From the IMG/VR virus record IMGVR_UViG_2703718829_000003: 8,514 nucleotides of DNA; one strand, written 5' to 3'. The translations under genes were made by a program, and so were the position numbers. This DNA is from a virus (lineage: Duplodnaviria; Heunggongvirae; Uroviricota; Caudoviricetes). Shown one piece after another: positions 1-8,230 of this stretch; position 1 is the first letter of the stretch; each line of letters begins with the position of its first letter. The notes under the pieces were generated by a model that did not search any database, had not been told where the DNA came from, and was given only the letters and a program-made list of their open reading frames with translations.

Positions 1-1053
1 ATGACGTTACCACTAAGAGATTACTATCCTATTGAGCGCGCGGCAAAGTTATTAGACTGCGATATTGATGATCTTATTCATTGGGCTGTGACAGGCTGCA
101 TTCGTATTTGTATAAAAATTGAATCTGCATATGGAGTATTAAATATCCCAGATGAAAAAGATGTGGTTAATTTCGATTGTCTGCGTAAGTTTCTGGATTC
201 AGAACCATGTAAATCACGGTTATCTGACCTTGATGCCATTTCAGAAAGGGCGGCAGAACACCATGGTTTTAATTATATAAAAACCAAGTCGAGAATTATA
301 TTTGATTCAATGTGCGAATCTCTAAGTCATTCATATGTAGCGCCCAAATTTGGTGACATAGCAATTGATACTGCATTTGCTTTGTTAAATTATTATAACA
401 GGGGGTTATATTATGGGGAAAATTATCACATATATAGTGTATATCGAATAGCAACGGATGAAAGAGCTGTGGCAGTTGTACCACCAGTATTTAAAGGTAT
501 TCAAGAAAAATACCATAAGTATTTTGTTGAAATAGGCGGTATTTTCGCTTTGGGGGGAAGTTTTTTTGCCAACTATGATTTTAATAAGAAGTTTAAAGCC
601 AACCGAATAATTAATAGCAATATTATAATTGCTTCTGACGTTGATATACATATAGGAGTAATTGTTACTGAGGATGTTTCTTTTGATATTGGTGATTTAT
701 ATATCTTAAAGAGTGATTTTTTAAAAATACAAAATGCTACAAGCTCCAATAGCGAGTTAAGAAAAGATTATGTTAATCCATTGGCAGACACTTTATATTT
801 GTGTGCGGGTAACAATATATTAAGCTCTGAGGATGGAGAGAAAGATATATGCACCAATAAAAACAATATAGAACGATTATCTAAAACAATGAAGGATTTT
901 TTTCGTGCGATGCTTGTTATTCATTATAAAGAACTCGAAAACAATCCGGTAAAACTTGCTGATATATTGACCGCGGAAGCAAAAGAGGCAGGACTCAATA
1001 TGCGCTTTGATAAAAGTACTATATCAAGATGGATTAAGGCATCATCTCAGTAA
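1..1053 (+). CDS. Hypothetical protein, 350 aa; AT-rich cargo-like gene with HTH-like segments at both termini (possible DNA-binding regulator); function unknown
   Basis: Uninterrupted 350-codon ORF starting at the ATG at position 1 and ending at TAA 1051-1053. GC is visibly lower (roughly one third by eye) than the ~50% of the rest of the window. N-terminus (ERAAKLLDCDIDDLIHWAVTG) and C-terminus (GLNMRFDKSTISRWIK) resemble helix-turn-helix DNA-binding motifs. No catalytic motif recognised. Upstream signals lie outside the window. Confidence 0.6.
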   Translation: MTLPLRDYYPIERAAKLLDCDIDDLIHWAVTGCIRICIKIESAYGVLNIPDEKDVVNFDCLRKFLDSEPCKSRLSDLDAISERAAEHHGFNYIKTKSRIIFDSMCESLSHSYVAPKFGDIAIDTAFALLNYYNRGLYYGENYHIYSVYRIATDERAVAVVPPVFKGIQEKYHKYFVEIGGIFALGGSFFANYDFNKKFKANRIINSNIIIASDVDIHIGVIVTEDVSFDIGDLYILKSDFLKIQNATSSNSELRKDYVNPLADTLYLCAGNNILSSEDGEKDICTNKNNIERLSKTMKDFFRAMLVIHYKELENNPVKLADILTAEAKEAGLNMRFDKSTISRWIKASSQ

Positions 1054-1148: not shown

Positions 1149-1469
1149 ATGACTCAATCCGCATTCATTCCACCAACTCCAGAACAGCGCCGCACCATAC
1201 TCGCCGAGTATGGTTTTGACTGCGAAGAACGCATCAGGGAAGAGAAGTGTAAAAAAATGACCACGCTTTCACGCTCCCGGCGCTGGGAACTGGAGAAGAT
1301 CGGTGCTTTTCCTCCCCGTCACTCTTTGGGGCGTTGCTCATGTACCTGGCTGTTAAGTGATGTTTTGTGGTGGCTACGTAATCCGCCAGTTATTGCCAAA
1401 GTGAATAACCCATACGAAAACGCCAAAAAGAAAAGGGAGAGGGAATCCGGTAGCGCCAGAGTTGAATAA
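1149..1469 (+). CDS. alpA: AlpA-family (phage/prophage regulatory, MerR-like HTH) transcriptional regulator, 106 aa
   Basis: Strong Shine-Dalgarno (AGGGGGAAAT) immediately upstream of the ATG at 1149. The segment RIREEKCKKMTTLSRSRRWELEKIGAFPPRHSLGRCSCTWLLSDVLWWL follows the AlpA pattern (helix - LSRS-type turn - FP.P..LG - R...W...EI..WL). The HTH helix begins upstream of the internal Met at 1257, which supports the 1149 start. Confidence 0.7.
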   Translation: MTQSAFIPPTPEQRRTILAEYGFDCEERIREEKCKKMTTLSRSRRWELEKIGAFPPRHSLGRCSCTWLLSDVLWWLRNPPVIAKVNNPYENAKKKRERESGSARVE

Positions 1470-1570
1470 GCCCGGGCGGCTTATTGCAGCCCATCGCTTG
1501 GCGGCAAAACTTACTGATGTGAACACGTTGCTACACGTGAGGGGGAGAGGTCGGGCGCTGACAGCAGAGC

Positions 1571-1601
1571 AAAAAAAAGAAGCTCGCTAAAGCCAGCGAG
1601 C
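1571..1601 (-). terminator. Candidate intrinsic terminator for a leftward (minus-strand) transcript
   Basis: Perfect 7-bp GC-rich stem (1582-1588 GCTCGCT / 1595-1601 AGCGAGC) with a 6-nt loop, directly preceded on the + strand by an A8 run (1571-1578). This gives hairpin + U8 on the minus strand. No U-tract follows on the + strand. Confidence 0.3.
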
Positions 1602-1735
1602 CAACCAGTCAAGGATGTGCATTTAGTGCACCTGAAACCAACAATAAGAAATAATAGGCAGAAATGATTATGGCTTTTTTACTCTTAAAAATCAATCACT
1701 CAGCGCAAGCGCGCCAAAATAATTTGCAATATTGC

Positions 1736-1765
1736 TTGACTCGCTTTTTTGTCATGGCGTATCGT
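1736..1765 (+). promoter_or_regulatory. Candidate sigma70 promoter for the small-ORF/primase/integrase operon, abutted by a 10-bp palindrome
   Basis: -35-like TTGACT (1736-1741), 18-bp spacer, -10-like TATCGT (1760-1765). The perfect palindrome GCAATATTGC (1726-1735) sits directly upstream and could be an operator. Assigned by eye only. Confidence 0.3.
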
Positions 1766-1835
1766 TTGCCCGCACCTCATAAAGCGGGTGCCGGGTTTAG
1801 CAGCCTGATTGACAAAGCGGGTAGCCGCTATATTT

Positions 1836-1914
1836 CCGTAATGCGGTTTTTTTGTGCCCGTAATACCACCCTTTCCCGTATTATGGCGGGGCGTAATGGG
1901 GAGGCCGTAAGGCC
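1836..1914 (+). repeat. Five direct CGTAAT-like heptamer repeats in the untranslated leader, ending in a GNRA-type hairpin
   Basis: CCGTAAT (1836-1842), CCGTAAT (1858-1864), CCGTATT (1876-1882), GCGTAAT (1891-1897), CCGTAAG (1905-1911). The last copy lies inside GGCC-GTAA-GGCC (1903-1914), a 4-bp stem with a GUAA tetraloop. A second hairpin follows (CTGGT 1917-1921 / ACCAG 1931-1935). Confidence 0.4.
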
Positions 1915-2017
1915 TGCTGGTTTCTTTGTCACCAGTCTGCTAACCCTGTTACGTCCCGCCACCATGTTTAGCAGCGTGCTGGCGAGACTCCGTAAATTAG
2001 ACAAAGGAGCCGCCAAA

Positions 2018-3189: not shown

Positions 3190-5859
3190 ATGAAACATAA
3201 CACCAGAAAAGAGATTATTAACCGTCTTATTCGTGATTACAACTTTAAAGAAGAAAATAACTATCTTCGTTATGGTGTTTGTCCGCAATGTGGAAAGAAG
3301 GAACTGTTTACCAGTCTTGAGAGGCCGTACATCGTACACTGTGGCCGCGAAAATAAATGCGGTGCAGACCTGTTGACCAAAGAACTTTACCCGGATGTGT
3401 TTTCGTCATGGTCAGATCGCTATATCAGCACGAAAGACGATCCATACGCAGCGGCGGCAGCTTATCTTCAGGAAGCGCGCAATATTGCTGTGGAGCCACT
3501 GAAAGGGGCATTTACTCAGGAGCGATACCAGGACAAGGAAAGCGGCGAACAAGCCGCTACCGTGCGTTTTACGCTGGCTGACGGCGTGTGGTGGGAGCGC
3601 ATCATAGACCGACCGGAACGCTTCGCTCGCAAGGCGAATTTTTCCGGCAGCTACAAGGGGCTGTGGTGGGCTTATCCGGGAGCTGATTTAAGCAAGGCCA
3701 AAGAAATCTGGATTTGTGAGGGTGTCTTTGATGCCATCAGCCTTAACCAGAATGGCATTGCGGCCGTTTCTGTCATGTCTGCCGTGAACTACCCTGATAA
3801 GGCGCTGGAAGAACTGGCGAAGCTGTGCGGAGATAATCCCCGTCCGGTTATTGTGTGGGCGCTGGATAACGGGCGTGCGGGTGAGCGTTACGCGAAAAAA
3901 CATGCAGAACGCAGCGCCGAAGGCGGCTGGAGAACGGCAGCGGCGTTACCGGGTGAAAACAACAATAAACGCGACTGGAATGATTTACACATCGCCGGAA
4001 AGCTACGTGGCCATGATGTGAAAAGATACCGTTATTACGGTGATTTATTGCTGGCGAAATCTCCGAGAGATAAGGCACTAATAATGTTTTCCTTTCGTGA
4101 GCGAAAGGAATTTCATTTTCCCTTTGATAACCGTGTGTTCTGGTTCAAGCTGGATATTGAGCGCCATATGAAGGCTGTTGAGCGTGTCATTAATGAGCGA
4201 AATGTTGACGAAGATGAAGCGCGCAAAATTGCACTCAAGGAATCCGGCGCTGTAAAAGAAATCGCAAACTGTAACCCAGTGCCGCTTTATTACATTCGAA
4301 ACAATGATACGGATGAAGCATGGTATTACTTCCGCATTACATTCCCGGATGGTGCTACGGTGAAAAACACCTTTACATCAGGGCAATTAACATCCGCATC
4401 TGAATTTAAAAAACGTCTGTTGCACGTAGCAAAAGGCGGCATTTATACCGGAACGACTACGCAACTTGACGCATTAATAAAAAATGACCTTCCCGCAATA
4501 AAAGAGGTTATTGGTCAGGATTTTATCGGATACAACAAGGCCATTGGGGCATGGTTGTTTAATGATATTGCTGTTTACAAGGGTAAAACTTATGAAATCA
4601 ATGACGAAGATTATTTTGAAATTGATGGCATAAACGCAAAACCATTAAGCGAAAAACCCACATTACAGATTAACTACAAAAAACCGGATGAATTTACAAC
4701 GTCATGGGTGGAAGATCTCTGGCTGGCTTTTGGCGAAAAGGGAATTATTACCCTGGCTTTCTGGCTGGGTTCGCTGTTCAGTGAACAAATCCGGGATAAA
4801 GAAGAATCCTTCCCCTTCCTTGAAGTCACCGGGGAGCCCGGAACGGGTAAATCAACATTGATTGATTTTTGCTGGCGGCTGTGCGGTCGTGACAACTATG
4901 AAGGCGTAGATCCAACCAAAGGATCAGAGGCGGGCTGGAAGCGCACCTTTGGACAGGTCGCCGGATTACCTGTTGTTCTGATTGAAGCGGACCGGGGAGA
5001 CAATGCGCAAAAAAGAGGTGCGTTTGACTTCGATAACCTGAAAAGTCTCTATAACGGCGGTGGTATCGGCGTTCGTGGTGTTAAGGCCAACAATAACAAC
5101 ACCTATGACCCGGATTTTAAGGGCGCTATCGTAATTGCGCAGAATGCGCGGGTAAACGCCTCGCCGGCAATTATCGAGCGCCTGATACGTATATACACCG
5201 ATAAAAAACGCCATTCACCTGATACCCGACTGGCGGCGAGACGACTGGAACTCTACCCCGTCGAGAAGGTATCGGGGTTTATTCATCGGGCGGTAAGTCA
5301 GGAACGGGCGATTATGCAAACGTTCCTGGAAGTGTCGCCGGCTGAAACGGAACGCCTTTGCGGATGCGAAAATATTCGCCATCCCCGTATCGCCAAAAAT
5401 CACGCGCAACTTATCGCGCTGGTCAGGGCGCTTAAATGCGTTATTGATATCCCGGCTGAATGGCTTGATGCCACATGTCTGGAACTGGAACAAATGGCAA
5501 CAGCGCAGGTTAAAGCGGCGGCGGCTGATTTACCGGAAGTGGTGGAGTTCTGGGAAGCGTTCGACTTCCTGGACGGCATAACAAAATACGGTGTAAACCA
5601 CTACGGCAAGGGATGCTGCGAAGGGATTGCTATCAGTATTCCGCAACTGGCACAGGCAGCCGCCATTCACCGCGTGGAGATCCGAACCGATCGCGAAATG
5701 ATTGAGTTGCTCGGGGCTGGACGCTCCCGACCGTTGACAGGTCGTAAAACAATTCGTAGTGAGGTGTCCAGACAGGCAAACGCCGGAAAAGGGGTAGCCG
5801 AGGCCAGAGAGCCGGAAGTACTGAAATGCCGGATATTCAGTTACAAGGAGGGGCGTTAA
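3190..5859 (+). CDS. Bifunctional DNA primase / helicase replication protein (Zn-ribbon + TOPRIM primase domain, C-terminal P-loop helicase-type NTPase; P4 alpha-like), 889 aa
   Basis: N-terminal zinc-ribbon CPQCGKK...HCGRENKCG; TOPRIM-type acidic motifs ICEGVFDAISL and VWALDNGRAGERYA; Walker A VTGEPGTGKSTLID (nt 4831-4857) and Walker B-like VVLIEADRG. First ATG in frame is at 3190; the ORF-track start at 3166 is a GTG inside the upstream hairpin. Confidence 0.9.
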   Translation: MKHNTRKEIINRLIRDYNFKEENNYLRYGVCPQCGKKELFTSLERPYIVHCGRENKCGADLLTKELYPDVFSSWSDRYISTKDDPYAAAAAYLQEARNIAVEPLKGAFTQERYQDKESGEQAATVRFTLADGVWWERIIDRPERFARKANFSGSYKGLWWAYPGADLSKAKEIWICEGVFDAISLNQNGIAAVSVMSAVNYPDKALEELAKLCGDNPRPVIVWALDNGRAGERYAKKHAERSAEGGWRTAAALPGENNNKRDWNDLHIAGKLRGHDVKRYRYYGDLLLAKSPRDKALIMFSFRERKEFHFPFDNRVFWFKLDIERHMKAVERVINERNVDEDEARKIALKESGAVKEIANCNPVPLYYIRNNDTDEAWYYFRITFPDGATVKNTFTSGQLTSASEFKKRLLHVAKGGIYTGTTTQLDALIKNDLPAIKEVIGQDFIGYNKAIGAWLFNDIAVYKGKTYEINDEDYFEIDGINAKPLSEKPTLQINYKKPDEFTTSWVEDLWLAFGEKGIITLAFWLGSLFSEQIRDKEESFPFLEVTGEPGTGKSTLIDFCWRLCGRDNYEGVDPTKGSEAGWKRTFGQVAGLPVVLIEADRGDNAQKRGAFDFDNLKSLYNGGGIGVRGVKANNNNTYDPDFKGAIVIAQNARVNASPAIIERLIRIYTDKKRHSPDTRLAARRLELYPVEKVSGFIHRAVSQERAIMQTFLEVSPAETERLCGCENIRHPRIAKNHAQLIALVRALKCVIDIPAEWLDATCLELEQMATAQVKAAAADLPEVVEFWEAFDFLDGITKYGVNHYGKGCCEGIAISIPQLAQAAAIHRVEIRTDREMIELLGAGRSRPLTGRKTIRSEVSRQANAGKGVAEAREPEVLKCRIFSYKEGR

Positions 5860-5861
5860 AC

Positions 5862-6866
5862 ATGCCGATCAGAAAGATGCATGATGGGCGGTGGCTACTC
5901 GATATCAGGCCATGCGGACGTAAAGGGAAGCGCATCAGAAGAATATTTGACAAAAAATCTATAGCTACAGCAACTGAACGGTACATCATAGCGAACGCCG
6001 AAAAGCGCGAGTTTATACAGGGCTATCGCGACCGGAGAACCCTTAGCGATTTACTGGAATTGTGGTGGGTTTATCACGGTCAGCACAGGCGAAAGGCAAA
6101 CACGGATAAACAGCAGCTTGGCAAAATTATTAATGAGCTTGGAGCTGACATGTTTGCGGTAGAACTCGACAAATTAAAAATCATTGCATGGCGATCGCAG
6201 AAAATTGCGGAAGGATTAAAGCCGTCCTCAGCAAACAGATACATGAACAGATTATCGGGGATGTTTACAGCCCTGAAAAAGATCGGTTTGTGGGATGCAG
6301 AGCATCCGGTTCGTGGTATTCCTGTTCTTTATGTAAAGCAGCGGGAAATGGCCTTTTTATCAAAAAACGAGGTCACATTGTTGCTTGACGGGCTGAATGG
6401 AGATCAACGAAGGGTTGCGCTCTTGTGTCTTTGTACCGGAGCCCGCTGGAGTGAGGCCAGCAGATTGCATGGAGAGCAAATAGTTCATAATAGAATAACG
6501 TTTCTGGAAACCAAAAACGGTAGAAAAAGAACGGTGCCTGTGTCGCAGGAAATATGCGATGCCGTAAAAACAAAAGAAACCGGGCGACTGTTTGATGTGA
6601 AGTACAGAGAGTTTTGCCGGGCATTAAAAAAAATAAAACCCGATTTACCGAGGGGGCAGGCTGCGCATGTATTGCGGCATACATTCGCCAGTCACTTTGT
6701 GATGAACGGTGGCAACATTCTTGCGCTACAAAAAATCCTTGGGCATGCGACAATTCAGCAGACTATGGCATACGCACATTTTGCACCGGATTATCTGGCA
6801 GATGCCATGAGATTTAACCCGGTAGCCAACATAGTGATCACCGAAGAAAAAGAGCCAGCAGAGTAA
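5862..6866 (+). CDS. int: Tyrosine site-specific recombinase (small phage-type integrase, P2-Int-like size), 334 aa
   Basis: AGGAGG (5846-5851) upstream of the ATG at 5862, which lies 2 nt after the primase stop. Catalytic signature present: Arg box TGARWSEASRL, HVLRHTFASHF (H-x-x-R), and nucleophile Tyr in LGHATIQQTMAYAHFAPDY. N-terminus MPIRKMHDGRWLLDIRPCGRKGKRIRRIF is typical of small P2-type integrases. Confidence 0.9.
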   Translation: MPIRKMHDGRWLLDIRPCGRKGKRIRRIFDKKSIATATERYIIANAEKREFIQGYRDRRTLSDLLELWWVYHGQHRRKANTDKQQLGKIINELGADMFAVELDKLKIIAWRSQKIAEGLKPSSANRYMNRLSGMFTALKKIGLWDAEHPVRGIPVLYVKQREMAFLSKNEVTLLLDGLNGDQRRVALLCLCTGARWSEASRLHGEQIVHNRITFLETKNGRKRTVPVSQEICDAVKTKETGRLFDVKYREFCRALKKIKPDLPRGQAAHVLRHTFASHFVMNGGNILALQKILGHATIQQTMAYAHFAPDYLADAMRFNPVANIVITEEKEPAE

Positions 6867-6921: not shown

Positions 6922-7117
6922 GTTGGCCAGAACCAACGGTAACAGCAATGCAATGGTGGTCATATTGCAGTAGTGCCGCCATCAATTTTTTGCTTCCCCT
7001 GATTATCAGAAAGAGTCAAACAGTGGCGAGATACATTTCAATCACAGAGAGTTAATGAGAGTGATACAGAGTAAGTGGGTTTAATTAACATTTTAAAGGG
7101 TCGCGCTAAAGTTTGGG

Positions 7118-7431
7118 GGGGGGTGCGCAAAGCGGTTACAACGGTTACAAATTTAAAATCACTTATTTTTGCATTATATATCAATACATTATAACTGGTC
7201 GGATGAGTTACAAAAGCGGTTACAACGCGGTTACATGTAACCGTTTTGTTAGGTTACAGGCGGTTACAGGTTAAGTTTTTAATTGATTGATAATAAAGTG
7301 CTTTTTGAAACCTGTAACCGTTGTAACCGCAGTGTAACCGCAAAGCGGTTACAAACAATATCCATTAAAATCATGCTGTTAAGTGGTGTTTTTGACTGTT
7401 GTAACCGTTGTAACCGCTTTGCGCACCCCCC
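7118..7431. repeat. Iteron array (at least 13 copies of CGGTTACA / TGTAACCG) bounded by a perfect 33-bp inverted repeat; putative origin of replication
   Basis: The inverted-repeat arms 7118-7150 and 7399-7431 are exact reverse complements (GGGGGGTGCGCAAAGCGGTTACAACGGTTACAA). Octamer copies in + orientation begin near 7133, 7142, 7217, 7228, 7252 (GGTTACA only), 7261 and 7346; in inverted orientation at 7236, 7313, 7322, 7333, 7400 and 7409. A 16-bp perfect palindrome CGGTTACATGTAACCG lies at 7228-7243. AT-rich spacers separate the clusters. Confidence 0.5.
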
Positions 7432-7657
7432 ACCGGATTATGAGGCAGAGCCCCAAAACAACTGGCCTGACCTCTAACAAAAATGCAACATCAATCATTG
7501 ATTTTTTGGGGCTGTCAGTCACGGGGAGTTGCCCTGTTGTTTGGCAGAAAAATGAAGTATGTACATGCGCGGCGGGGATGGTAAAAAACGTAATACACGC
7601 GGCGCAGTTGCCATAAAAAATCTCTCAAAAGCACTCTTTTTGACGCTATTGTTCATC

Positions 7658-7686
7658 TGCACAAAAGTGCACAAATTTGCACAATT
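7658..7686 (+). repeat. Three tandem TGCACAA repeats with exact 10-bp periodicity, plus a fourth copy at 7749-7757; candidate operator
   Basis: TGCACAA starts at 7658, 7668 and 7678; GTGCACAAA recurs at 7749-7757. A related imperfect palindrome GTGCAtttagTGCAC occurs at 1617-1631. Confidence 0.35.
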
Positions 7687-8047
7687 TTTTAGAGTAACTT
7701 TTTGCCCATCCGGCCCAGTACTGGCGCGCCCGGAGGGCGATTTCGTGCGTGCACAAAAAACGGTGAGTTTTTCGCGCGCAGGTGACGGGGGAACAGCACG
7801 CGTTTCAGGGGGTAAATTACATTTTCGCTAAAGGCTGCGGGAATGCCCCGACCGGGTTAGTTTTATCGCCAGCCAGAGCCGTTCTTACGGCAAGAGAGAA
7901 CTGATACGGGGAATGTGACGAGTGAGCATGGGAACGGCGCGCCCGTGCGTAATACGCGGCGACTGCTGCGGGTTTATTTGATACAGCCAGAGGGGGGCGG
8001 CAGAAGATATAATAGGTTAAATTTCACACCAGTAAGAGGAGCGTGAT

Positions 8048-8230
8048 ATGTCTTTCCCTTGCCCGGCCTGTGGCGCTTCAGCCCGCACCCGTGGTCGTTC
8101 GTTGGAAGAACACGAACAAAACATCTACAGAACGTATTACCAGTGCAATAATATTGAGTGTGGGGCTTGTTTTTGTACGCTTGAGTCGTTTGTACGCATT
8201 ACTAAGCGCAGGAAGTCGAAAACTTCATAG
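8048..8230 (+). CDS. ogr: Ogr/Delta-family zinc-finger transcriptional activator homologue, 60 aa
   Basis: AGGAG (8036-8040) 7 nt before the ATG at 8048. Product MSFPCPACGASARTRGRSL...YYQCNNIECGACFCTLESF matches the Ogr/Delta signature (C-P-x-C ... ARTxR ... Y-x-Q-C-x-N-x-x-C ... F-x-T-x-ES) with four Cys ligands. Confidence 0.8.
   Translation: MSFPCPACGASARTRGRSLEEHEQNIYRTYYQCNNIECGACFCTLESFVRITKRRKSKTS

Follow-up and report, generated by a model that had tools for sequence, protein, structure and literature searches.

A probable C4/CI-type antisense-RNA immunity module embedded in the eta-like reading frame of a P4-like satellite of Escherichia coli

We analysed a DNA window of 8,514 nucleotides and, comparing its sequence with known systems, found that positions 1736–2017 very probably form an immunity module based on antisense RNA, of the type known from P1/P7 c4 and P4 CI, embedded in an eta-like open reading frame (ORF) of a P4-like satellite (PICI) that adjoins hpt in Escherichia coli. 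The elements of the module follow one another as internal promoter, leader with a1 and b1, hairpin with U7, C4, a2/b2 and an icd/kil-like gene (Table 1). Taken together, these motifs are those of a C4/CI module as in P1 and P7 (immI) and P4 (PLE-cI), and a reading as a protein-binding array is not favoured. The findings leave the known mechanism as it stands, and the module is an ordinary addition to the well-studied C4/CI family. Four small ORFs and a primase gene lie downstream in the same direction, the alpA/vis-like gene upstream is named ‘helix-turn-helix transcriptional regulator’ in RefSeq, and the RefSeq annotation also places an Ogr/Delta gene and an integrase in this satellite context. 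No tRNA or tmRNA was found in the region. RefSeq presents the entire stretch as one 175-aa ‘Icd-like protein’ with no RNA feature, and a homologue of the module occurs in 1152 of 5426 complete E. coli genomes (about a fifth). The module would identify the immunity determinant of the hpt-inserted satellite, making mutually immune elements predictable.

Table 1. Features in and around the module, numbered from the first letter of the window
Feature	Position	Strand	Basis or remark
alpA/vis-like helix-turn-helix gene	1149..1469	+	ORF; Pfam Phage_AlpA, E 3.3e-7
Intrinsic-terminator-like hairpin GGCTCGCTGG...AGCGAGCT with T-run	1572..1602 (hairpin 1602-1581)	-	Sequence motif
eta-like long ORF, 175 aa	1664..2191	+	ORF list; CDS in RefSeq
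Candidate promoter TTGATT-N17-CATAAT	1667..1695	-	Also in L025 and L023
Perfect 10-bp palindrome GCAATATTGC	1726..1735	.	Abuts -35 hexamer; no operator evidence
Internal sigma-70-type promoter TTGACT-N18-TATCGT	1736..1765	+	Motif; alignment to annotated P1 promoter hexamers
Leader RNA, isrK/SeqA type	1772..1853	+	Rfam isrK; predicted fold
a1	1796-1803	+	TTTAGCAG; leader hairpins
b1	1810-1817	+	TGACAAAG; leader hairpins
CGTAAT copies	1837, 1859, 1892	+	Motif scan
CGTATT; CGTAAG	1877; 1906	+	Motif scan
Small hairpin just 5′ of C4, CCGTAATAC / GTATTATGG	1858..1886	+	Inverted-repeat search (I21)
C4/CI-type antisense RNA	1885..1963 (~79 nt)	+	Ends inferred from P1/P7 annotation; Rfam match 1879-1966
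C4 closing stem	1884-1901 / 1944-1961	+	Predicted fold
C4 hairpin 1, GUAA loop, AGGCC-GTAA-GGCCT	1902-1915	+	Predicted fold
C4 hairpin 2, GCTGG...CCAGT	1916-1936	+	Predicted fold; loop carries b′
b′	1924-1931	+	CTTTGTCA; loop of hairpin 2
a′, single strand CTGCTAA	1937-1943	+	Between hairpin 2 and closing stem
a2	about 1966-1978	+	GTTTAGCAGCGTG; inverted repeat with C4
b2	2000-2011	+	GACAAAGGAGCC; overlaps Shine-Dalgarno AAGGAG 2004-2009
Icd/Kil-like gene, 57 aa	2018..2191	+	NCBIfam NF033153 phage_ICD_like, 56 bits, residues 9-51

The antisense RNA itself is matched by the Rfam C4 model (RF01695) over 88 nt at 79.7 bits (gathering score 45, E 7e-15), with the model aligned from position 1 to 87 of 87. 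The predicted fold has a minimum free energy of −47.8 kcal/mol and the same architecture as in P1, P7 and P4, comprising a long closing stem around two hairpins and a single-stranded segment. Across 15 sequences, 10 of the 17 pairs in the closing stem change on both sides. A preliminary description of this DNA had noted a GGCC-GUAA-GGCC hairpin and a second hairpin at 1917–1935, had thought a regulatory RNA analogous to the P4 immunity RNA plausible, and had proposed a covariance-model scan as a check. Both hairpins are far above chance and are the two inner hairpins of C4 in the Rfam match, and the scan supports the analogy, returning C4 and also isrK (see below) above their gathering scores. 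Just 5′ of C4, the small hairpin also appears when the whole leader is folded to minimum free energy, and P7 has a CGTAA/TTACG hairpin at the matching place. Substitutions within C4 fall about equally on the three codon positions (4/4/5 in locus L013 and 5/5/5 in locus L014), which argues that this is not ordinary coding sequence.

Upstream of C4, the promoter-like TTGACT-N18-TATCGT site was found where the preliminary description had placed it and is invariant in nine relatives; it is the positional homologue of P1/P7 P1c4 (P51b) and P4 PLE. The leader that follows is matched by the Rfam isrK model (RF01394) at a marginal 52.1 bits against a gathering score of 50, while the c4-a1b1 model (RF03163) reaches 29 bits at 1759–1811, under its threshold of 46.7. 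Two 5′ hairpins present a1 and b1 and are followed by a terminator hairpin with U7 at 1823–1853. Both the score and the hairpin layout are those of the isrK/SeqA type, but the third stem is weak in the fold, with 5 bp and a 13-nt loop, and the leader as a whole has a fold z-score of −0.98. The P4 and P7 leaders share this layout, and in Rfam the isrK and C4 matches come in the same order and at the same spacing as in P7 and P4.

Pairing between C4 and its putative targets was read from inverted repeats I2, I3, I7 and I20 and direct repeat D5 of the window. The a′ and b′ segments are complementary to targets on both sides, upstream for a1 (a1:a′, 14 nt at 86%) and b1 (b1:b′, 8 nt at 100%), and downstream for a2 (a′:a2, 19 nt at 74%) and b2 (b′:b2, 12 nt at 83%). 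The b′:b2 duplex has an energy of −11.4 kcal/mol, a strength that 1 of 500 shuffles reaches, whereas the a′:a2 duplex alone is no stronger than shuffles (78 of 500 reach it). In a 4 × 4 cross-matrix, the b duplexes were strongest with their cognate partners.

Among nine near-identical E. coli islands, the flanking genes are mostly 0–3% diverged and C4 is 16–19% diverged; these islands carry four b alleles and two a alleles, each of which switches at all three of its sites together. Twenty modules drawn from P1, P7, P4 and E. coli show the same triple covariation. The 110 IMG/VR modules of the matches listed comprise 30 allele combinations (29 were tabulated with flanks), and in 29 of these b1/b′/b2 and a1/a′/a2 are concerted. 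The b′ segment reads CUUUGUC in the window, CACAAUC in P7 and CACUAAC in P1, the allele of locus L013 is CUUGAUUG, and a′ with its targets is identical to that of P7. With matched changes at three sites for each, the allele data suggest that two short elements, a and b, which assort independently of each other, determine specificity. No other sequence examined carries the b′ CUUUGUC, and the C4 specificity allele of the window is absent among the first 120 IMG/VR matches listed. A search for a phage or plasmid sharing this specificity, with possible helper cross-talk in view, gave a best phage match of 84% and no plasmid match of at least 95%. A primase-based search with one genome per species returned eight loci, and the distant primase loci (Rhodoferax, Marinobacter, Comamonas and Cardiobacterium) have no C4 or isrK match and provide no covariation data.

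The downstream b target coincides with the translation start of the icd/kil-like gene, whose 57-aa product is 45% identical to P7 Icd (E 2e-12). The ATG at 2018 lies 8 nt after AAGGAG, and in all 20 modules b2 overlaps the Shine-Dalgarno sequence 8–10 nt ahead of the ATG of the Icd-like gene, such that the downstream target covers part of an icd/kil-type ribosome-binding site. The preliminary description had taken ATG 2018 as the first well-supported start, and for transcripts from the internal promoter this is upheld both by the b2/Shine-Dalgarno/ATG geometry in the 20 modules and by the Icd-like domain, which falls wholly within the 57-aa ORF. The gene is predicted to be the first translated from the internal-promoter transcript, under the control of C4.

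A working model for the repressed state can be drawn by analogy with P1, P7 and P4, which also supply where transcription would start, where the RNA would be processed, its termination at U7 and any role of Rho. The internal promoter would be constitutive, with most transcripts ending at the leader terminator. Read-through RNA would be processed to stable C4, with RNase P cutting its 5′ end, and b′ and a′ of C4 would then pair with b2/a2 and b1/a1 on new transcripts and block the icd/kil ribosome-binding site. The untranslated RNA would be ended by Rho, leaving the downstream replication genes off. The RNase P cut and repression by a translation block and premature termination follow the P1/P7 annotation, PMC4825925 and PMC10111431. 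The first of these papers describes IsrK as a structural homologue of P4 SeqA RNA and sets out the action of CI (PMC4825925); the second reports C4 and isrK matches in gram-negative PICIs, including PICIs at hpt, and summarises eta, kil and CI (PMC10111431).

The closest DNA relative of the module is the immI c4 region (c4-icd-ant) of P7 and P1, with the highest identity being 79.8% to P7 over window positions 1791–1976. The window is collinear with P1 and P7 at the same spacing (promoter, a1, b1, terminator-like hairpin, c4, a2, b2/Shine-Dalgarno, icd), the P1 record annotates a1, b1, c4, a2, b2 and icd, and the first gene after the window module is a homologue of Icd. Unlike P1 and P7, the window has a different b′ and different b targets on both sides, its hairpin 1 closes on a GUAA loop and is longer by one base pair, a C1 operator is lacking, the genes under its control would be the small ORFs and primase rather than the antirepressor ant, and the frame through the module is open (eta-like) where it is closed in both phages.

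The preliminary description had likened the region to the leader of P4, which holds for the type of region but not for its nearest sequence relative, this being P7/P1 c4. The P4 immunity region (PLE, seqA, CI RNA (seqB), seqC, nested eta/kil and the alpha primase) has the same operon logic and order as the window: both have alpA/vis, an internal constitutive promoter (predicted in the window), an isrK-like leader, C4/CI, an Icd/Kil-like gene, small ORFs and primase, in both a long ORF begins ahead of the promoter and finishes as kil, and they share a satellite setting with an Ogr/Delta gene and an integrase. In sequence, however, P4 is much more distant and falls outside the 25 phage matches listed, its a and b elements differ, and its terminator and CI lie about 90 nt further apart.

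A third likeness is to the IsrK sRNA (RF01394) and STnc1160 of the Salmonella Gifsy-1 prophage, where three hairpins and a U-tail, as in the window leader that matches the isrK model, are followed by a processed downstream RNA (PMC4825925). In Gifsy-1, IsrK opens an inactive fold in trans and activates translation of orf45-anrP (PMC4825925). We consider it unlikely that the window leader does the same, acting in trans on the long transcript to switch on the downstream ORF and so being more than a target or decoy of C4. The isrK model does score over its gathering threshold and PMC4825925 links IsrK to P4 SeqA RNA; moreover, when the full leader is folded, the minimum-free-energy structure pairs b2/Shine-Dalgarno with the U-run and the 3′ half of the terminator, a pairing that resembles the translationally silent ‘structure A’ of that study. 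That score is nevertheless marginal, the pairing comes from a single fold with an ensemble frequency of 0.004, and the elements that covary with C4 are a and b, which suggests that C4 is their partner in specificity. The downstream genes also differ, and such activation could coexist with C4 repression, not replace it.

The preliminary description had also drawn attention to a palindromic operator and five CGTAAT-like heptamers, and these raise the alternative of control at the level of DNA, in which the palindrome GCAATATTGC is an operator and the heptamers are an array bound by a repressor or initiator. All five heptamers are present where they had been described. CGTAAT shows a mild enrichment: the two strands of the window together carry 12 copies where 5.5 ± 2.2 would be expected, and 3 of 200 shuffles reach 12. 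The three exact copies of the array fall within 61 nt. As a repressor-binding array, however, the heptamers find no support, since four of the five make up an arm or loop of an RNA helix and the remaining one is enclosed by the terminator hairpin. Copy 1 is the one looped out by the leader terminator, copies 2 and 3 face each other as the arms of the hairpin just 5′ of C4, copy 4 forms the 5′ side of the C4 closing stem, where GTTACG at 1950–1955 is its partner, and copy 5 belongs to the GUAA tetraloop hairpin. Neither P1 nor P7 repeats the heptamers, and in the closest relatives copy 5 is replaced while the helix is retained. The heptamers were also considered as alternative partners of GTTACG, and this was rejected because, in P7, L015 and L019, changes in the C4 stem are not matched by changes in the copies.

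For the palindrome, the claim that it is perfect and abuts the −35 hexamer is correct, and an identical 10-mer occurs again at 3479, inside the primase gene. Perfect 10-bp palindromes are nevertheless at chance level in the window (7, against 8.2 ± 2.7 in shuffles), and the site is not conserved outside the close family. It is kept in eight of nine close relatives and broken in L020, but this conservation is uninformative because positions 1688–1790 are wholly invariant there, and at the homologous promoter of P1, P7 and P4 the palindrome is missing. Neither conservation at the homologous promoter nor frequency is as expected of a DNA operator or iteron array, and the P1 C1 operator was not found near the promoter with up to three mismatches. 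We therefore regard DNA-level control of the operon through these motifs as quite improbable, and the C4/CI module as the better account of them.

The module lies within a long ORF, which begins upstream of the internal promoter, crosses the leader and the C4 gene, and ends in frame as the Icd/Kil-like gene. The same nesting is known from P4: the long ORF eta takes in PLE, seqA and CI, and kil makes up its 3′ part (PMC10111431, summarising Forti et al. 1999). Read in frame, the extension without a stop codon runs for 120 codons in the window and for at least 110 in each of the 14 satellite modules examined, but for 11 in P1, P7 and L019, so that the frame is kept open in none of these three phage modules. 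Counted by frame, distinct stop-triplet contexts number 0/45/26 in satellites (0 of 71 in the ORF frame) and 9/12/6 in phages. Since the frame is stop-free in satellites but not in phages, as with the nested eta/kil of P4, the stretch would be leader or coding depending on the promoter used. The P4 eta principle is thereby extended to this island family, with the stop-free overlapping frame in satellites only and the known mechanism unchanged.

These results modify two points of the preliminary description. Its statement that about 550 bp between alpA and 2018 lack a convincing ORF does not take in the 175-aa ORF, which spans the region, is a RefSeq CDS and has a frame selectively kept open in satellites. 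Its view that translation of 1664–2191 would refute a regulatory leader needs correcting, as the long ORF and the RNA coexist in P4 and the frame is free of stops in all the satellite modules. The open ORF, its annotation by PGAP in all relatives and its stop-free frame across satellites might suggest an ordinary coding gene, of which the region would be no more than the 5′ two-thirds, with incidental RNA-family matches. This is barely credible. The Icd-like profile spans residues 127–169 only, no protein family is matched by the N-terminal 118 aa, and the ORF product has no protein-level similarity to that of P4 eta (E 0.91). Substitutions are even over codon positions and cluster in the RNA specificity elements, and the ORF has within it a promoter homologous to P1 P1c4. 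Protein coding alone leaves the covariance-model scores and the three-way compensatory changes unexplained, and P1 and P7 retain the RNA module though their frame has stop codons. The Pfam family Phage_ASH was tried for the long ORF and gave no match at E up to 0.01, matching the P4 ORF only.

Under the C4/CI reading, the long ORF would serve in the induced state. Read-through (‘late’) transcripts, presumably from the alpA promoter, would carry the start of the 175-aa ORF, with ATG 1664 or 1670 as candidates, and ribosomes crossing the leader, terminator, C4 and targets would prevent the RNA structures and Rho from acting. Expression would then escape immunity, as with eta in P4. Here the two systems differ in their upstream ends: P4 eta overlaps the end of vis, giving translational coupling, whereas in the window the alpA stop at 1469 and the first ATG at 1664 (with an in-frame stop at 1655–1657) are separated by a gap of 195 nt, at odds with coupling to alpA. 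Together with the poor Shine-Dalgarno sequence ahead of both ATGs, this gap makes translation of the long ORF less certain.

The same 195-nt spacer has features on the minus strand. The terminator-like hairpin has no U-tail on the plus strand, and in eight relatives its stem is invariant and its loop variable. At locus L025, where the upstream sequence is unrelated, a non-homologous minus-strand hairpin and T-run occupy the same relative place. The evidence for a minus-strand promoter is confounded, as CATAAT is also what the ORF start ATGATTATG reads on the complementary strand, and the fold z-score is only −2.0. We tentatively raise the rather unlikely possibility that the spacer encodes a cis-antisense RNA of about 90 nt, running on the minus strand from ~1660 to ~1572, from TTGATT-N17-CATAAT to the hairpin and T-run. 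By lying across the region where ribosomes bind to the eta-like ORF, this RNA would control the bypass of C4 immunity that depends on translation. The sequence of a cis-antisense RNA need not be conserved, and thus the pattern at L025, with the same promoter and a different hairpin and T-run, is the one expected. Such an RNA would be a second switch stacked on the C4 switch.

A scan of the whole window with the Rfam covariance models, which the preliminary description had suggested as a check on the interval 1470-2017, gave three hits, each on the plus strand and within that interval. The C4 antisense RNA model is matched over its full length at 1879-1966 (79.7 bits, gathering score 45, E 7e-15), isrK is matched at 1772-1853 (52.1 bits against a gathering score of 50), and the C4 a1/b1 target motif is found below threshold at 1759-1811 (29 bits). 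P4 and P7 are also matched by all three models, in an identical order, with the P4 C4 match falling within the old 'cI' CDS. The earlier proposal of a P4-type immunity RNA was right in essence. By DNA similarity P4 is not the nearest phage; this is the P7 c4 region (79.8% over 1791-1976), followed by P1 (77%). Collinearity with P1 and P7 extends from the promoter through the icd start codon, and since promoter P1c4 (formerly P51b), a1, b1, c4, a2, b2 and icd are all annotated in the P1 record, each of these elements has a positional counterpart here. The closing stem of C4 and all four intermolecular complementarities were found independently by the repeat finder (I1, I2, I3, I7, I20 and D5). 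From the sequence, the promoter, the target sites and C4 can be shown, as can an overlap between b2 and the ribosome-binding site.

Features of the window around and beyond the C4 module (a', b', elements of C4; a1/b1 and a2/b2, upstream and downstream targets)
Feature	Position	Strand	Remarks
Hypothetical gene	1-1053		
AlpA-family gene	1149-1469		Pfam Phage_AlpA
Hairpin	alpA stop		repeat finder I15
Well-formed hairpin with T-run	1602-1581	minus	intrinsic-terminator-like; loop variable, stem invariant in relatives
TTGATT-N17-CATAAT	1695-1667	minus	consensus-level, promoter-like
Promoter TTGACT-N18-TATCGT	1736-1765		
Leader	1772-1853		two hairpins presenting a1 and b1, then weak hairpin with U7
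a1	1796		TTTAGCAG
b1	1810		TGACAAAG
Weak leader hairpin with U7	1823-1853		terminator
Small hairpin	1858-1886		directly 5' of C4
C4	about 1885-1963		
C4 closing stem	1884-1901 / 1944-1961		
C4 hairpin 1	1902-1915		GUAA loop
C4 hairpin 2	1916-1936		loop holds b' (CTTTGTCA)
a'	1937-1943		single strand, CTGCTAA
a2	1966-1978		
b2	2000-2011		overlaps AAGGAG (2004-2009)
ATG of Icd/Kil-like gene	2018		
Five short ORFs			between region under study and primase gene
Toprim primase	3190-5859		
Tyrosine recombinase			after primase
Iteron-rich stretch			after tyrosine recombinase
Ogr/Delta zinc-finger gene	8048-8230		after iteron-rich stretch

Comparison with related modules provides evidence, from concerted change and complementarity, that the predicted pairing is functional. 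Nine E. coli islands are near-identical to the window around the module, and their changes lie in the specificity elements and hairpin 1 and are always concerted: four b alleles are each altered jointly at b1, b' and b2, and two a alleles, one of P7 type and the other of P1 type, are each altered jointly at a1, a' and a2. In the two islands compared gene by gene (L013 and L014), divergence is 0-3% for most flanking genes but 16-19% for C4. In 20 of 20 modules from P1, P7, P4 and E. coli loci, the b' loop can pair perfectly over 6-9 nt with a site upstream of C4, in most cases about 68 nt from it, and has a second perfect complement on the Shine-Dalgarno sequence of the Icd-like gene. In IMG/VR, a pattern scan yielded at least 110 further modules with flanks and, among the matches listed, at least 30 b/a combinations, with a assorting independently of b; b1, b2, a1 and a2 are perfect in all but one of these combinations, and that one appears to be spurious. 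When b duplex energies were calculated as a cross-matrix of the window, P7, P1 and P4, the cognate partner was the strongest. The b' allele of the window (CUUUGUC) was not found in the other phage, plasmid or viral-contig sequences examined, including the IMG/VR matches listed.

By analogy with P1, P7 and P4, transcription from the internal promoter would be constitutive and would terminate in part at U7, with the read-through RNA being processed to a stable C4. Pairing of C4 with a2/b2, and also with a1/b1, would then block icd/kil translation and expose the small ORFs and primase gene to Rho-dependent polarity, from which transcripts of the alpA promoter may escape when ribosomes translate the eta-like frame.

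All of the motifs listed in the preliminary description are present in place, and the observation is real, although only part of it goes beyond chance. Its two hairpins do exceed chance, form part of the strong covariance-model match and, given the anatomy of C4, are the two inner C4 hairpins. The palindrome proposed as an operator does not stand out, as the window holds seven perfect 10-bp palindromes against 8.2 expected; this palindrome (GCAATATTGC) occurs twice, at 1726 beside the internal promoter and at 3479 within the primase gene, with a one-mismatch copy at 4223. CGTAAT is mildly over-represented (12 copies in the window against 5.5 expected, with 3 of 200 shuffles as high). Neither the operator reading nor that of the CGTAAT-like copies as a binding array is upheld. 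The copies are arms and loops of RNA helices and do not persist as repeats in P1 or P7: the first lies in the terminator loop, the second and third form opposite arms of the hairpin directly 5' of C4, the fourth is the 5' arm of the closing stem, paired with GTTACG at 1950-1955, and the fifth is the tetraloop hairpin.

The premise that the interval lacks an ORF has to be corrected along the lines of eta/kil of P4, since the long frame 1664-2191 is open. RefSeq annotates this frame as a 175-aa 'Icd-like protein' without an RNA feature. The Icd-like profile match is confined to residues 127-169, corresponding to the 57-aa ORF from the ATG, which is 45% identical to P7 Icd; residues 1-118 have no family match and no similarity to the P4 product, and substitutions within C4 are spread evenly across codon positions. 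Together these speak against the first two-thirds being an ordinary coding sequence. Upstream of the ATG, the frame is stop-free for at least 110 codons in 14 of 14 satellite modules, and closes after 11 codons in P1, P7 and a P2-like prophage. From promoter to ATG, distinct stop-triplet contexts in the three frames number 0, 45 and 26 in satellites and 9, 12 and 6 in phages. The frame is evidently not open by accident in satellites. In the summary of Forti et al. 1999 given in PMC10111431, the long P4 ORF eta includes PLE, seqA and CI, and kil forms its 3' portion; ribosomes reportedly translate eta only on transcripts from the upstream late promoter, and this translation averts termination. 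The match of the stop-free frame to P4 eta suggests that 1664-2191 would be an untranslated leader for internal-promoter transcripts and coding for those derived from upstream.

Annotation of this stretch is similar elsewhere: RefSeq/PGAP gives no C4 or isrK ncRNA feature in the JP538 locus (L001 12195-12722) or any relative, and names the 174-175-aa ORF over the promoter and both RNAs 'host cell division inhibitor Icd-like protein'. In the old P4 'cI' ORF (L003 8330-8521), residues 22-85 match Pfam Phage_ASH (PF10554); since the DNA for these residues also encodes the CI RNA gene and the downstream target of that RNA, this protein family largely tracks the RNA gene inside the eta frame. Three E. 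coli satellites (L015, L016 and L018, about 1010-1900) carry two tandem units of isrK or a1b1 leader, C4 and Icd-like gene that differ in a/b specificity, and L017 is listed with them for its second unit only; in RefSeq these units appear as runs of 'Icd-like' and 'Ash family' CDSs and pseudogenes.

By sequence the module belongs to the P7/P1 c4 type, whereas its operon logic is that of P4, with alpA upstream, an eta-like frame and the primase downstream. P4 differs in having eta translationally coupled to vis; in the window, a gap of 195 nt lies between alpA and the beginning of the ORF. C4 and isrK matches in gram-negative phage-inducible chromosomal islands (PICIs), and the location of CI inside an ORF, have already been reported (PMC10111431), as has the link between IsrK and the P4 SeqA RNA (PMC4825925). 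Homologues are carried by 1152 of the 5426 complete E. coli genomes. The module is a further case of a well-known kind, with a b-type specificity unseen elsewhere in the sequences searched.

The 266 nt at 1470-1735 are found only with this island family, in 66 E. coli genomes. On their minus strand, the terminator-like hairpin lies about 60 nt downstream of the TTGATT-N17-CATAAT site. Relative L025 has unrelated upstream sequence, yet keeps the promoter and has a non-homologous minus-strand hairpin with a T-run in the same relative place, making a cis-antisense RNA to the alpA-eta spacer a possible lead. Against this, the −10 hexamer is complementary to the start of the ORF (ATGATTATG), whose conservation would be expected in any case, and the fold of the predicted RNA is only slightly better than that of shuffles (z = -2.0).

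The element to which the window belongs is a P4-like satellite, one of the gram-negative PICIs. An identical copy lies between gcd and hpt in the E. coli JP538 chromosome and additionally has a left-end integrase, a P2-family capsid gene and a PemK/MazF pair; PICIs with the hpt insertion site have been described (PMC10111431). The P2-family major capsid gene and PemK/MazF-MazE toxin-antitoxin pair adjoin hpt (L001 19920-21827). Two tyrosine recombinase genes are present, one at the left end adjoining gcd (L001 9316-10515) and the second directly 3' of the primase gene, whose end it overlaps (window 5826-6866). Downstream of both primase and second recombinase genes, a 36-nt inverted repeat (97% complementary) at 7115-7434 surrounds at least 10 GGTTACA/TGTAACC iteron-like copies, a cluster that is probably the replication origin of the satellite. 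Upstream of the Ogr/Delta zinc-finger gene, three closely spaced, partly palindromic TGCACAA motifs (AAAAGTGCACAAATTTGCACAATTTT) lie at 7655-7690, with a fourth copy 92 nt beyond them (7750-7759).
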